DNA of 64,000 nucleotides, from contig DATDYP010000011.1 of NCBI GenBank assembly GCA_035288985.1, positions 7,673 to 71,672 on the forward strand. Reading direction: 5' to 3'. This DNA is from Candidatus Nanoarchaeia archaeon. Its GTDB lineage: Archaea; Nanobdellota; Nanobdellia; Woesearchaeales; GW2011-AR9. A program made the position numbers and the translations under genes. Below, one piece after another: positions 1 through 5,601 of the stretch. How positions within the stretch are numbered: the first letter of the stretch is position 1; the number at the start of each line of letters is the position of its first letter. The notes beneath the pieces are model-generated. The model was not told the DNA's origin and did not search any database. It worked only from the letters and a program-made list of their open reading frames with translations.

Positions 1-3000
1 GCAACGCCATCAAATGAATACGAATAAGATTTGGTTGGCAAAGTAGAACTATCTAAGGGCATGATCTCTTTCACAATCCTGCCAAAGGTATCATATTCAA
101 AGTTTTTCCTGATCCCATTCTTCTCTTCAAACAACAGATTACCAGTTCCCAGATCGTAATTATACACACTAACATGTCCCAGAGCATTGACAACAGAAAC
201 AGGGTAGGTATAGGTGGAATCGTAATTATAACTGACCGAATTTCCTACCGAATCTGTACTTTTAACAACATTCCCAAAACCATCATACTCAAAATAGCTA
301 TAACTATTATTCCCGTTATTGTTCCAGTCTTCTTTCTTGCTCAATGCCCCTTTACTGCCTACTGCATTCAAGCCGAGATCATCATAATAAAACAAGGTCT
401 TCTTAATTTCATCTCCATTGGAATCAATCACAGTTGAAGTAGCCACTCGATCCAAGATCCAGTCGTCAGTATCTTTACTATAGGTATAATTATAGAACCG
501 CTCATCACCGGAAACATTTGCCTCCCCAAAATCAGTCACAAACAGCACATTCCCAGAACTATCATAGACAAACGTCTTATTGGTAACTTTAGGATTACCA
601 GCGCCATCATACAGATACAAAGAACTAAACCTCAACGTAACGTTAAAGATCCCATTATCCTGGGTATGGTTAAATTCTTTCAGATCAACAGAAAAGAGCG
701 ATCCATTCAAGGAAAACACTTCCGTCTTGTACTCCTTACCACGACGAGGATCGTCTTGATAGAAGTAATGCTTGACCACAGAATTATCTTGTATCTCTTC
801 CGTCCTGCCAAAACCTCTGAACTCAAAATTATCATAATTATATTTTCCAAAAGAATAATTATACGCAAACGAGCTATTAACTCCTAAATCTCCAGAAACA
901 TTATTATGAGACGTAACATTACCAACAACAAAAATATTAAACCCCAGGTCAGACAAACCATCTTCAGAATTATTAAAAGAAGTAGAGGTCGTATAATTCA
1001 GCGTCGTCCTGCCGCCATACTCATTGATGATCGCCCGCAGCAGATACGGGATGGTTGAATTCTTCACCCACGTATATTTAGTGGCATCGTCTTCATGAGC
1101 AACAACTACATCTACAAAGCCATCGCCATTCACATCCGCCAAACGGCGGCCAACATTAAAGCCAGACGAAGTAAACGCTTCCGGGCTTTGCCAAGAAGAA
1201 TCAGAACTCCATCCTCTTCCAGTGTTAATCCAGGCATCCCTTGTTGTTTCACTGGTATTGGTAAAATCAACAACAAGGTCAACCAAGCCGTCGCCGTTAA
1301 GATCGGCAAACCTTGCTCCCTTGTCAGCATCCGCGCCGTTAGTGAAATACACGGGAGGAGCCCAGATGCTGTTCTCAACCCAGCTTGAGCCATTATTGAG
1401 CCAGGCTTTCCTGACAGCTCTGGATTCAGAGCCTTCTAAAATATCCACCATACCATCGCCATTTACATCAGCCTCGCGCAGGCCAAGATCAACATGATTA
1501 GCATTCACAAAATCAAAGGTGGTATTCCATGATGAAGACACCTCCCATCCATGGCCATTATTGAGATACACAGCTCTGGGTTCGCTTCCACGCCCTTTGA
1601 TGATGTCCACAAAGCCGTCGCCGTCAACATCAACTAAGCGCACCCCCATGTCAGAGAGAGGGTTATTAACAATGTCGTAGGGAAAAACCCAGTCAGAACT
1701 GCTGTAATCAGTGGCATTGGCAAAACCAGTGCCATTATTGAGATACACTGTCCTTGCCCCGCCAGCAGACTTGATCAAGTCCTGAAAGCCGTCCCTGTTA
1801 ACGTCAACAAACCTGACACCCAGGTCCTCGCCACTTGGATTTACAATATATACCGGAAGAGTCCATGAAGGGTCTTCAGTCCAGTTGCCGGTTTTATTGT
1901 TGAGCCAGACTACCTTTACTAAGCTTGCTTGCCTCGCCTGCACCAGATCAGAAAAGCCGTCATTGTTGAAATCAACAAAACGCACGCCATAATCCTCATG
2001 GGCATTATCAGAAAAAATCACCGGAGGAACCCACAATGACATATCTTTTTCATACCCAGGTGTAGAAGCATAATATTCAAACGAAACATTGTACCAGATG
2101 GAGGTATTGTCAGCGCCATAATCAGTAATCTCGGAAATCGAACTTAATGCTGGATTTAAAGTACTATAATCGAGATGATACCTTCGCACTAGCACATTAC
2201 CAGCAAACACAGAAATATCCGTCAGCCTTCTGCTCTCCTCAACCTCATTGCCATTCTCATACACCCTCCTCCTGTCCGGGCGGACAGAATTTTCATAACT
2301 AAACCTTACCTCGCGTTGGTTATAGACGACAGAACTCAAATACATGGAGCTATTATCCTGAGCAGTTGGATTTTCCAGATAACTATAGCTGATCTGATTG
2401 CCAAAAAGGTCTTCTACCAGATCCAGGCTCCATTTGGTGGAAAAATTCTGTCCCGTGTTAGAAGCCAGCTCAGAGTCAGTGTTATATCCAAACCGGTACT
2501 TCATGCCGTCCTTCTTCGTAACCTGCCAATACACGCCCTGTTCATTCGGCGCGGCAGACAAATTCTGCACTTTGAAATAATACTCTACTTCCGTATGCCA
2601 GTAACCATCAGAAGGGGCATAGCGCAGCTCATACAAATTGCCGTCTAGAACCAGCTTAAACTCATCATCGGAAATATCGCCGAGAGTATTATTAACCTCC
2701 CTGTAAATCTGGTTGGCAGGCAATGACCATCCTGCTCCCGCAACTCCCGGCCGACCATTGACCGCCTGGCTGTTATACGACAAGACTATTGAAGGCTGCA
2801 ACCCAGTAGTGCCTTTAGGCACTTCTATCGGATAGGAATACGTTGCTGCTCCAGGAAAGAGATTAGTCTTATACTGCCCGAACAACTTCACATCAGGATG
2901 TTCAGGGACAGAGGCTTTATGCAAGTATGGTTTAAATCCATCGTCAGCAGCGTAGCTGAGAGGAAGAAGAACTACAAATACAAAAAATAACAGCGCTATC

Positions 3001-3008
3001 TTTCCCAT
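1..3008 (-). CDS. Large secreted FG-GAP/VCBS-repeat + YD/RHS-repeat protein (partial: N-terminus in window, C-terminus beyond left edge)
   Basis: Reading the minus strand from ATG at 3008 gives MGKIALLFFVFVVLLPLSYAADDG (signal peptide) and stays open to position 1. The ORF track shows no long ORF because the stop lies outside the window. There are recurrent D-x-N-x-D-G-x-x-D Ca-binding repeats (RFVDVNRDGFQDLI, RLVDVDGDGFVDII, READVNGDGMVDIL, RFADLNGDGLVDLV, RLADVNGDGFVDVV), followed by YD-type repeats (FEYDGFGNVV, YNYDSTYTYP, VYDSSGNVL). This was translated by hand, so residue details are approximate. Confidence 0.6.
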   Translation of the reverse strand, partial: MGKIALLFFVFVVLLPLSYAADDGFKPYLHKASVPEHPDVKLFGQYKTNLFPGAATYSYPIEVPKGTTGLQPSIVLSYNSQAVNGRPGVAGAGWSLPANQIYREVNNTLGDISDDEFKLVLDGNLYELRYAPSDGYWHTEVEYYFKVQNLSAAPNEQGVYWQVTKKDGMKYRFGYNTDSELASNTGQNFSTKWSLDLVEDLFGNQISYSYLENPTAQDNSSMYLSSVVYNQREVRFSYENSVRPDRRRVYENGNEVEESRRLTDISVFAGNVLVRRYHLDYSTLNPALSSISEITDYGADNTSIWYNVSFEYYASTPGYEKDMSLWVPPVIFSDNAHEDYGVRFVDFNNDGFSDLVQARQASLVKVVWLNNKTGNWTEDPSWTLPVYIVNPSGEDLGVRFVDVNRDGFQDLIKSAGGARTVYLNNGTGFANATDYSSSDWVFPYDIVNNPLSDMGVRLVDVDGDGFVDIIKGRGSEPRAVYLNNGHGWEVSSSWNTTFDFVNANHVDLGLREADVNGDGMVDILEGSESRAVRKAWLNNGSSWVENSIWAPPVYFTNGADADKGARFADLNGDGLVDLVVDFTNTSETTRDAWINTGRGWSSDSSWQSPEAFTSSGFNVGRRLADVNGDGFVDVVVAHEDDATKYTWVKNSTIPYLLRAIINEYGGRTTLNYTTSTSFNNSEDGLSDLGFNIFVVGNVTSHNNVSGDLGVNSSFAYNYSFGKYNYDNFEFRGFGRTEEIQDNSVVKHYFYQDDPRRGKEYKTEVFSLNGSLFSVDLKEFNHTQDNGIFNVTLRFSSLYLYDGAGNPKVTNKTFVYDSSGNVLFVTDFGEANVSGDERFYNYTYSKDTDDWILDRVATSTVIDSNGDEIKKTLFYYDDLGLNAVGSKGALSKKEDWNNNGNNSYSYFEYDGFGNVVKSTDSVGNSVSYNYDSTYTYPVSVVNALGHVSVYNYDLGTGNLLFEEKNGIRKNFEYDTFGRIVKEIMPLDSSTLPTKSYSYSFDGV

Positions 3009-4408: not shown

Positions 4409-5601
4409 TTTATCACCTCCGCAGATGATCTAGCTAAGAAGTAACTGTCATCACCTGCGGTAAAGTCATCTTCAGAGTTCTTCTCATACTTGACAAAACT
4501 CTCTCCTTCCAGGACAAATTTCTGGCAGCTTTCCCCTGATGAACATACACCATTGCCATTGCCGTCAAGCTTGCTGTCGCAAAGTACAGTAACAACTCCT
4601 CCTTGCTCGGTTGTGGAACAAGAATAGTCTTCAGTTGTAAGTTTGACGCTCTTCACGCCATTATCCAGCATATAGCCAAAGGTGTCGCACTCATCCCTGG
4701 TTTTTTGCACTTTCTGCGTTCCGGTAATGCATTGATACGTTTCCTGAGCTGGAGTATTGCAGCTGGTATTAGATGGCGCATCACTACAGACAACTGGCTC
4801 AGTAAGCCTTGTACAAGTTCCGTACACGCTTTCCAATCCTTCATAGGTGATGGGCGTGCATGTTTGAAGAGGAGTAACAGAACTCTGAGCCTGCACAGCT
4901 AATGGAGTAAGAACAATCTCTTCCTCAGCCTTCGGCGGTTCTTCAACAGTAACCTCCGCGCCGGCGGAACTGCCTTCATATTGATCATTTCCAGGATAAT
5001 CAGCCTTGACTGTATATACTCCAGCAGATGTTGGCGAGGAATCCCAGAATACTGCCGCTTCCCCTTTATCATTGGTTATCTCGGAACCGATCTTCTGAGC
5101 GCCAAGATAAAAATCAATGGATTGGTGCGGGACAGGATTTTGATTTTCATCTACTAATAAAGCCCGTATCTTAACCATTTGCCCGATGAACACTTTTATT
5201 TTATCAAGTACGACCGAAAGGAATGTTTTGATCTTCTGAACTATTGGAACAGGCGTTCCCCCAGTAAGGGAGTCTGGAGTAACTGTTTCAGAAACAGGCT
5301 CTTCGGCTGGCGTGCTTTCGGCAGGAGTTTCAACAACAGGTTCAGCTGCGGGAATTTCTTCGACAGGCACTTCTTCAGGAATTATCTCTTCCACTGGCAG
5401 TATGGAGATAGGAGTGCTGTCGGCTGTCTGTTCAACAGGATCCGCAGCCGGCAGGATTGATATAAGAGGATTAGCCTCTTCGGCGAGGGTGGCAGATTCT
5501 GGAACAGAGCTATTAAGAGATTGATTTGTTTCATGTTCCGCAACGGCAGAAAAAAGCAACAATACACTTACCAGTAATATAACTGCTAATTTATCTATCA
5601 T
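4405..5601 (-). CDS. Secreted protein with Pro/Glu-rich linker, Ig-like middle region and Cys-rich C-terminal domain
   Basis: 398-aa ORF with a signal peptide (MIDKLAVILLVSVLLLFSAVA). A PVEEIPAAEPVVETPAESTPAEEP low-complexity linker follows. The C-terminal 150 aa contain many Cys in CxxxxC arrangements. It is the first gene of a three-gene minus-strand operon. Confidence 0.5.
   Translation of the reverse strand: MIDKLAVILLVSVLLLFSAVAEHETNQSLNSSVPESATLAEEANPLISILPAADPVEQTADSTPISILPVEEIIPEEVPVEEIPAAEPVVETPAESTPAEEPVSETVTPDSLTGGTPVPIVQKIKTFLSVVLDKIKVFIGQMVKIRALLVDENQNPVPHQSIDFYLGAQKIGSEITNDKGEAAVFWDSSPTSAGVYTVKADYPGNDQYEGSSAGAEVTVEEPPKAEEEIVLTPLAVQAQSSVTPLQTCTPITYEGLESVYGTCTRLTEPVVCSDAPSNTSCNTPAQETYQCITGTQKVQKTRDECDTFGYMLDNGVKSVKLTTEDYSCSTTEQGGVVTVLCDSKLDGNGNGVCSSGESCQKFVLEGESFVKYEKNSEDDFTAGDDSYFLARSSAEVIK

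Follow-up and report, generated by a model that had tools for sequence, protein, structure and literature searches.

In the TcB/TcC subunits of Photorhabdus (TcdB2-TccC3) and Yersinia (YenB-YenC2), a YD-repeat shell is split over two polypeptides: the first has the order SpvB, FG-GAP propeller, TcdB_midN and YD repeats, and the second, TcC, contributes about 680 amino acids (aa) of shell together with an Rhs core that holds an Arg and two Asp and with a variable cargo. DPANN archaea are abundant, mostly uncultured and dependent on other cells, and to our knowledge the molecules by which they touch, exploit or fight other cells are largely unknown. Here we analyse a locus at positions 1..5601, on the minus strand, of a 64,000-nt stretch of DNA (the window; contig DATDYP010000011.1) from a Candidatus Nanoarchaeia archaeon. 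We suggest that its three genes are probably the upstream half of a split, Sec-exported polymorphic toxin-immunity locus of the TcdB/TcaC class, i.e. of a Tc BC-like RHS cocoon in a DPANN archaeon.

The TcdB/TcaC class was defined by Zhang et al. 2012 by a signal peptide, SpvB, a propeller and RHS, and Euryarchaeota are the only archaea named in its phyletic list (PMC3482391). As of 2021, no archaeal polymorphic toxin system had been characterised experimentally (PMC8416519). In the literature that we searched, which did not cover the review of archaeal polymorphic toxins by Makarova et al. 2019, DPANN archaea are tied to RHS, Tc or SpvB proteins only via SPEARE of Nanohaloarchaeota (Hamm et al. 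2019), which is reported to have a BC-toxin-like domain, laminin-G, a transmembrane (TM) helix near the C-terminus and a cytoplasmic end and is proposed to act on the host (PMC6642349). In mosquito SGS1 (PDB 8fjp), predicted TM helices are stored inside an Rhs cocoon, the shell is decorated by lectin and carbohydrate-binding module domains, and an Arg and two Asp are described as required for autoproteolysis (PMC9935623).

The three open reading frames (ORFs) of the locus lie on the minus strand where a first-pass annotation of the window had placed them, and ORFs and Pfam matches agree with its view of a co-directional operon of signal-peptide proteins (a Cys-rich/Ig-like protein, a laminin G (LamG) protein and an FG-GAP plus YD/RHS giant); the RHS_repeat, FG-GAP_3 and Laminin_G_3 calls were all matched by hidden Markov models. 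The stop of gene 1 and the start of gene 2 overlap (ATGA) and the gap between gene 2 and gene 3 is 8 nt, which argues for a tight operon. On re-inspection the minus frame from 3008 to base 1 runs for 1002 codons without a stop or frameshift, and the giant is missing from the ORF list solely because this frame runs past the window edge. The features of the locus are:

4405..5601, minus strand: gene 1, ORF of 398 aa
4945-5193, minus strand: gene 1, aa 137-219, Big_3_5 Ig-like domain (Pfam, 8e-10)
4408-4914, minus strand: gene 1, aa 230-398, Cys-rich C-terminal domain, from the sequence
3017..4408, minus strand: gene 2, ORF of 463 aa with a signal peptide
3725-4189, minus strand: gene 2, aa 74-228, LamG (Laminin_G_3, 4.3e-16)
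3020-3640, minus strand: gene 2, aa 257-463, C-terminal domain delimited by conservation ('Lam_C')
1..3008, minus strand: 5' part of gene 3, the TcB-like RHS shell protein, open frame with the first 1002 of 1898 codons
2949..3008, minus strand: signal peptide of the giant, read from the sequence (MGKIALLFFVFVVLLPLSYA, with a putative cleavage site before AD)
2358..2852, minus strand: giant aa 53-217, SpvB domain (Pfam PF03534, 1.2e-12 / 5.1e-13)
1089..1991, minus strand: giant aa ~340-640, FG-GAP/VCBS beta-propeller (FG-GAP_3 3.8e-21 in 5 stretches, FG-GAP 2.2e-10)
741..1154, minus strand: giant aa 619-756, TcdB_toxin_midN (Pfam PF12256, 3.8e-21)
1..728, minus strand: giant aa 761-1002, start of the YD/RHS shell (RHS_repeat at aa 908-932, 3.7e-7)
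5602..5753, no strand: divergent intergenic region upstream of gene 1, from the sequence

An exact look-up of the gene 2 protein returned ten contigs, and the metagenome contig L001 matches the window at 100% identity over 12,000 bp and extends the locus leftward. The full giant comprises 1898 aa (L001 11401-17097), and its hydrophobic N-terminus with an A-x-A-like site was read directly. PDB TcdB1 (6l7i_F) aligns to giant aa 385-743, the RHS_repeat match of the full protein reaches 2.9e-26, the YD shell of ~640 aa extends to aa ~1395, and Rhs, Tc and teneurin structures in PDB match aa 1081-1432. The N-terminal order of SpvB, propeller, TcdB_midN and RHS, a TcB-like architecture that the first-pass annotation had not named, indicates the architecture of a Tc-toxin TcB subunit. 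The Rhs core and C-terminal toxin that had been anticipated on this protein are absent: neither PF03527 nor DHLGS, the core-end motif (PxxxxDPxG) or a toxin domain was found in the full 1898 aa. The C-terminus is made of ~500 aa with about five ~95-aa PKD-like repeats, the first of which has the PKD-like signature WxxFGDG...NYxxGGxY. The tail repeats are conserved in 19 species and Pfam PKD models match 12 of 19 orthologous tails; the tail profile gave only a weak SorCS2 PKD match in PDB (E=0.1). A single-sequence AlphaFold model of the 503-aa tail, with a mean predicted local distance difference test score (pLDDT) of 32.6, was not used, and the PKD call is that of Pfam and the motif. In total, the giant is a Sec-signal-bearing TcB-like shell without an Rhs core plug and with a PKD-like tail.

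Homologs of the giant number 792 at E<=1e-10, and the named ones are from Woesearchaeota, Nanoarchaeota and Pacearchaeota. Unsplit relatives of 1550-1650 aa (P0066, P0097) hold shell, DHLGS, core-end motif and tip in one chain. The giant aligns to residues 2-1267 of P0097 and the small protein encoded after it (C1) to residues 1146-1343, which makes the giant the shell without the plug and the small protein plug and cargo, with some overlap of YD repeats. The YDx segment of the giant and the YD part of the small protein align to the same stretch of the unsplit proteins, and a direct BLAST of YDx against the core of the small protein detects generic YD-repeat similarity only (E=0.019).

Extending the contig leftward, as the first-pass annotation had advised, did uncover variable tips and small immunity-like ORFs, but these are on separate genes and not on the C-terminus of the giant. 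Likewise, the core motif foreseen as PxxxxDPxGL has the actual form NPYxxxDPxGH and is found on separate genes of ~445 aa with their own signal peptides (hereafter small-C), and what had been described as a three-gene operon is a conserved cassette of at least five gene types. Beyond the window, the following genes come after the giant:

L001 17163-18506: C1, a small-C protein of 447 aa, first ORF downstream of the giant
L001, after C1: protein of 221 aa with four TM-like segments
L001 19212-19382: TM protein of 56 aa, between the first immunity-like gene and C2
L001 19386-20720: C2, a small-C protein of 444 aa, after the 56-aa ORF
L001, after C2: membrane protein of ~212 aa

C1 and C2 share the same layout: a signal-peptide-like segment, YD hairpins (about 110 aa), a core (DHLGS...FHFRKY...QPD...NRYMFERGNPYGRIDPTGH) and a Gly-rich hydrophobic tail, and the family form of the core end, NPYxxxDPxGH, reads NPYGRIDPTGH here. 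The small-C family has at least 245 members, typically of 380-470 aa, that are conserved only over the first ~236 residues. The sequence matches of small-C lie at the closing end of teneurin YD shells and the best is SGS1, to which the alignment runs through the core end into a TM-like, Gly-rich hydrophobic helical tail of SGS1. Across a family alignment of 112 members, D205 is invariant and R192 and D232 are conserved in at least 90%; the three residues align with the Arg and two Asp of SGS1, and their conservation implies tip release.

An AlphaFold2 (AF2) model of small-C built on 112 homologs (mean pLDDT 74.9) shows an open beta-hairpin sheet (pLDDT >90 at residues 30-200), a core-end linker at residues 213-226 with pLDDT <50, and long helices in the tip at residues 238-392 (pLDDT 60-75). 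In Foldseek searches the sheet superposes on SGS1 with 2.1 A over 199 columns and also on the TcC chains 4igl_B (YenC2) and 6l7i_G (TccC2) and on Rhs cores from type VI secretion systems (T6SS); residues 30-200 superpose on SGS1 and teneurin shell ends, and the adjoining core-end linker is poorly modelled. Because the modelled sheet is open, the ~210 aa of shell in small-C appear unable to form a cocoon alone. Both tips at this locus are putative Gly-rich helical bundles, and a membrane-disrupting activity, which is a guess, is considered most likely for them. As a separate observation, the 56-aa ORF between the two pairs encodes a glycine-zipper TM helix (GAIGGGITGAIVY) and a poly-Lys tail, with a weak match to Bacteriocin_IIc (E=0.039).

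Recombination exchanges tips precisely at the core motif, and tip and following ORF vary together. By BLAST, 107 tips form 71 clusters, 63 of them singletons, and the N-terminal halves are 40-60% identical. The loci L007 and L008, whose giant (P0002) is the same, match at 99.35% identity over 16,377 bp before they split at codon ~233 of the small gene; the point of divergence is exactly the core motif, and the tips differ. At the locus studied here the tips of C1 and C2 fall in one cluster, and a 628-bp DNA repeat (89% identity) shared by the two genes ends at codon ~228 and is thus a ready substrate for tip exchange. In arrays, related loci also have orphan modules truncated at the 5' end, and a multi-TM ORF comes after each of them. 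Two further observations concern the tips and their surroundings. Otherwise unrelated tips (those of C2 here, of C1 in L007 and L009, of C1, C2 and 309 in L008, and of P0097, P0124, P0130, P0141 and P0153) end in a few recurrent basic motifs ('...TITTV..G..VYVKITPVK..KK', 'WYYNEKKGTYQYWxGxGxPSNxDYKP', 'ALQRFWxKxK'), which may act in packaging or gating as a signal. In L007 (19082-20221), an IS110-family transposase is encoded just downstream of the region with tip and immunity genes.

Most tips match nothing known. P0240 (L086) carries a Colicin_D tRNase tip (5.9e-18) with a Colicin_immun gene (PF09204) 3 nt downstream, and this toxin-immunity pair in one family member anchors the functional reading. 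We examined covariation in 92 tip modules from the fetched loci, mostly from different species: next ORFs are homologous in 20 of 48 pairs of homologous tips compared to 9 of 4138 pairs of unrelated tips (odds ratio 328; Fisher p=1.5e-34), a p value that overstates significance because the pairs are not phylogenetically independent, although the effect is still large. TM-like segments are present in 74 of the 92 next ORFs, and the proteins encoded after C1 and C2 have 3-4 TM segments followed by a cytoplasmic domain in which they share 36% identity. In total, a cognate immunity gene directly downstream of the tip is found at the level of the family, in the Colicin D pair and in the covariation. 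Separately, a tip matching DUF6883 (P0199, 2.8e-14; L087 459-1974) is followed by an opposite-strand 67-aa ORF with a weak DUF4926-like match; the two may be another toxin-antidote pair.

The accessory genes 1 and 2 are part of the same cassette. The gene 2 protein is conserved over its C-terminal ~200 aa (54% in L007, 39% in L009) and not over its N-terminal part, where LamG is detectable in four of nine orthologs. Ten type-A giants have sufficient sequence on their upstream side; all ten are directly preceded by a Lam_C gene, and the Cys-rich domain of gene 1 (Big_C) is encoded upstream of 6/10. Gene 1 begins with a hydrophobic segment (signal peptide) followed by a Pro/Glu-rich linker and has an ortholog with 40% identity at the matching position in L007; sequence searches of PDB with genes 1 and 2 gave no usable match. 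In L079 a Lam_C-like domain is fused to the C-terminus of a type-B giant, which provides a Rosetta-stone argument for physical association of the gene 2 protein with the giant. LamG is also fused to the N-terminus of some small-C proteins (P0158, P0161, P0173, P0216 and P0222; 608-698 aa), so that a lectin-like module is possible on the gene 2 protein, on a type-B giant or on the cargo subunit.

Compared to TcB/TcC, the locus has the same order of SpvB, FG-GAP propeller, TcdB_midN and YD, a shell split over two polypeptides of which the second has the Rhs core (Arg and two Asp) and variable cargo, and a predicted small-C fold that superposes on TcC chains. It differs from TcB/TcC in that (i) it has no TcA, both subunits bear Sec signal peptides and the host is an archaeon, (ii) the B-like subunit has the ~500-aa PKD tail and the cleavage motif is DPxGH, (iii) there are LamG and Ig accessory genes, immunity-like genes and orphan arrays, and (iv) the C-like subunit gives only ~210 aa of shell. 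With TcdB/TcaC-class and Rhs/WapA loci it shares the signal peptide, SpvB, integrin-like propeller and RHS repeats, the hypervariability of the tip from the core motif onward with an immunity-like gene after each tip, and the orphan tip-immunity cassettes with recombination at conserved core-coding DNA. The unsplit relatives from the same archaeal clade are ordinary full members of the TcdB/TcaC class, whereas the subfamily in the window encodes core and tip in a gene of their own, complete with a signal peptide, and has a PKD-ended giant, and thereby lacks one defining feature of the class, i.e. core and tip on the same polypeptide. SGS1 is the best match to the small subunit in both sequence and fold but is a single 3364-aa eukaryotic protein without polymorphic tips or immunity genes; by analogy, the hydrophobic helices of the archaeal tips may be stored in the cocoon like those of SGS1. 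SPEARE is by description alike in being a DPANN surface protein with BC-toxin-like and laminin-G domains and is by description set apart by being one polypeptide of up to 8553 aa that has serine-protease and restriction-endonuclease domains; Pfam detected no protease or endonuclease in the proteins of our locus. Judged from sequence, the split core/tip gene, the signal peptide of the cargo subunit, the PKD tail and the dedicated accessory genes appear to be new relative to the known TcdB/TcaC class.

The first-pass annotation had taken such a system for a rarity among small archaeal genomes, which it is not: 282 matches were confirmed when species-representative genomes were scanned with the small-C profile, and the type is common in DPANN archaea. 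Counted over the best 76 loci, the labels are Woesearchaeota (23 loci), Nanoarchaeota/-ia/Nanobdellati (18), Pacearchaeota (3), third-party annotation entries for "Uncultured Methanosarcinales" (24, e.g. L013, L018-L021, L024 and L025), other archaea including the closed genome GW2011_AR15 (6), and bacterial bins (2; Gracilibacteria and Nitrospinota, L022 and L046). We doubt the Methanosarcinales and bacterial labels, which are probably mislabelled or mis-binned contigs because all carry proteins 45-67% identical to DPANN ones. These 76 loci hold 105 core matches: 31 directly after the PKD tail of a giant, as here, 18 further down an array, 7 fused to a giant (unsplit) and 14 with too short an upstream sequence to tell; the rest are taken up below. 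In L007 and L009 the start of the small-C gene overlaps the stop codon of the giant.

In the mechanism that we propose, the small subunit would, after Sec export, complete and plug the shell of the giant, like TcC on TcB, and the core would then cleave after DPxGH, with the tip kept in the cocoon lumen. The variable N-terminal module of the gene 2 protein (LamG here), the Ig/Cys-rich gene 1 protein and the PKD tail would bind the target cell surface, the tip would be released onto or into the target, and the downstream four-TM proteins would protect the producer. A more specific proposal, which we regard as decidedly unlikely, is that the split itself is functional: DPANN archaea would export a reusable, TcA-less BC-type shell and interchangeable plug-cargo subunits (two here) that are armed outside the cell and aimed at the host of the episymbiont, with LamG, PKD and Ig domains docking on surface glycans, hydrophobic helical tips permeabilising the host membrane for nutrients or killing, and multi-TM proteins guarding the symbiont.

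Several points weigh against a split, exported toxin. We infer the assembly of the giant with small-C. Since both subunits bear Sec-type signal peptides, the cocoon would need to form outside the cell around separately exported cargo, and a translocator (TcA) through which soluble tips such as Colicin D could enter a target was not found at the loci inspected. The phylogenetic dependence among the covariation pairs counts in the same direction, as do the positions of 21 core matches upstream of a giant without a PKD tail and of 14 with no giant within 6.5 kb. The tip at this locus has no known toxin domain in Pfam, and among 1.84 billion representatives the Gly-rich tip has relatives in the small-C family only and none in other toxin scaffolds: there are 29 relatives, of which 28 are short proteins matched toward their C-terminal end, and the last is a 2067-aa protein whose match is repetitive and weak (E=9.4e-4). 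Finally, in 67 of 103 tips the cleavage motif is immediately followed by a strongly hydrophobic helix; together with the N-terminal signal peptide this helix could act as a stop-transfer sequence that leaves the tip in the producer's own membrane.

Such lodging of the tip feeds the main alternative, namely a teneurin- or SPEARE-like adhesion or host-attachment complex, in which the small protein would serve as an anchor of the type I membrane class (with the YD/core ectodomain outside, a single TM helix and a variable cytoplasmic tail) that tethers the LamG/PKD shell to the DPANN surface and in which variability reflects self/non-self recognition or host range. The signal peptides of the small proteins and the many adhesion-type domains at the locus (LamG, Big_3_5, PKD and FG-GAP) are consistent with such a complex, the tips that start with a TM-like helix after the motif end in basic tails and so fit the positive-inside rule, and SPEARE joins a BC-toxin-like domain, LamG, a C-terminal TM helix and a cytoplasmic domain in a protein for which host contact has been proposed (PMC6642349). 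On the other hand, the same scaffold also bears a Colicin D tip that is paired with a Colicin D immunity gene, a TM-like segment is missing from one third of the tips, the replacement of tips falls precisely at the autoprotease motif, there are orphan modules, tip and next ORF co-vary, and the Arg/Asp/Asp protease residues are conserved, implying that the tip is released; we consider a membrane anchor unlikely. Alternatively, the giant could be a stand-alone secreted or adhesin-type RHS shell and the small ORFs orphan toxin cassettes, independent or in decay, that earlier recombination left behind. With its long YD shell and a PKD tail of its own, the giant needs no core as an ORF, 5'-truncated orphan modules and small-C genes without a nearby giant are known, and YDx and the small-C YD part map to the same stretch of the unsplit proteins. 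We hold such independence to be very doubtful: in 31 loci of different species the small-C that comes first after the giant has its full length and a signal peptide, in L007 and L009 it overlaps the giant stop, across 112 members the catalytic residues of small-C are conserved, and the modelled open sheet of ~210 aa could not close a cocoon alone.

The remaining two alternatives have little to recommend them for this locus. A true Tc (ABC) complex aimed at eukaryotes, with TcA encoded elsewhere, would match the TcB-type N-terminal architecture and the TcC-like partner; all subunits carry Sec signals, however, and the organisms are DPANN archaea with small genomes from groundwater and sediment. 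In 61 kb of the window there is no ORF of more than 1006 aa except the giant, and the flanks of the gene clusters in L001, L007, L008 and L009 have no TcA-type Pfam match or giant ORF, whole genomes not having been searched. Because no TcA-like gene is present in the window or in these four related loci, a Tc ABC complex is extremely improbable. We give practically no credence to a canonical single-chain RHS toxin, i.e. a giant with the PxxxxDPxGL core and a C-terminal toxin followed by the immunity gene: RHS repeats are present and the relatives P0066 and P0097 (~1550-1650 aa) are so built, but the candidate is refuted here by the full-length giant, which is devoid of core, DHLGS, core-end motif and toxin and ends in PKD-like repeats. 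We favor the split, exported toxin-immunity locus. The locus type is widespread, with its 282 matches, and modular, built from a shell, a plug that holds autoprotease residues, tips that can be exchanged and paired membrane proteins. If it does encode a two-subunit, Sec-exported cocoon, Rhs encapsulation would operate without a T6SS, TcA or outer membrane, and the locus type would be a source of new archaeal membrane-active toxin families and of candidate immunity proteins.

Upstream of the operon, a 36-bp tandem repeat at 5682-5753 (Tandem Repeats Finder: period 36, 2.0 copies, 100% match) lies between gene 1 and a CofD-like gene (5754..6794), and each copy bears CCTATAATAC on the operon strand. 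The duplication is possibly a duplicated TATA box or regulatory site with a putative promoter function. A GAGGTGGTG motif precedes the ATG of gene 1 and a GGAGGTGA motif the start of gene 2. A sigma-70/terminator scan gave 36 hits compared to 31.3 +/- 5.8 in shuffles, i.e. no excess, with a model that is not applicable to archaea. Scans of the whole 64 kb for tRNAs (ARAGORN) and Rfam families (gathering threshold) found nothing.

Other genes of the window fit a DPANN archaeon, among them an archaeal AMP phosphorylase, PACE-CTERM-type S-layer-like proteins, archaeal STT3 and XPD; similarly, L009 carries archaeal S27e, S24e, Spt4 and Rpb7. The AMP/thymidine phosphorylase of the archaeal type, a marker of archaeal AMP salvage, is encoded at 9108-10610 on the plus strand and matches TIGR03327 AMP_phos above the cut-off (1.6e-165). 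Two adjacent proteins of 673 and 460 aa, at 16640-18661 and 18686-20068 on the minus strand, have sub-threshold PACE-CTERM S-layer matches (1e-18 and 3e-20), and the 460-aa protein also matches choice-of-anchor T.

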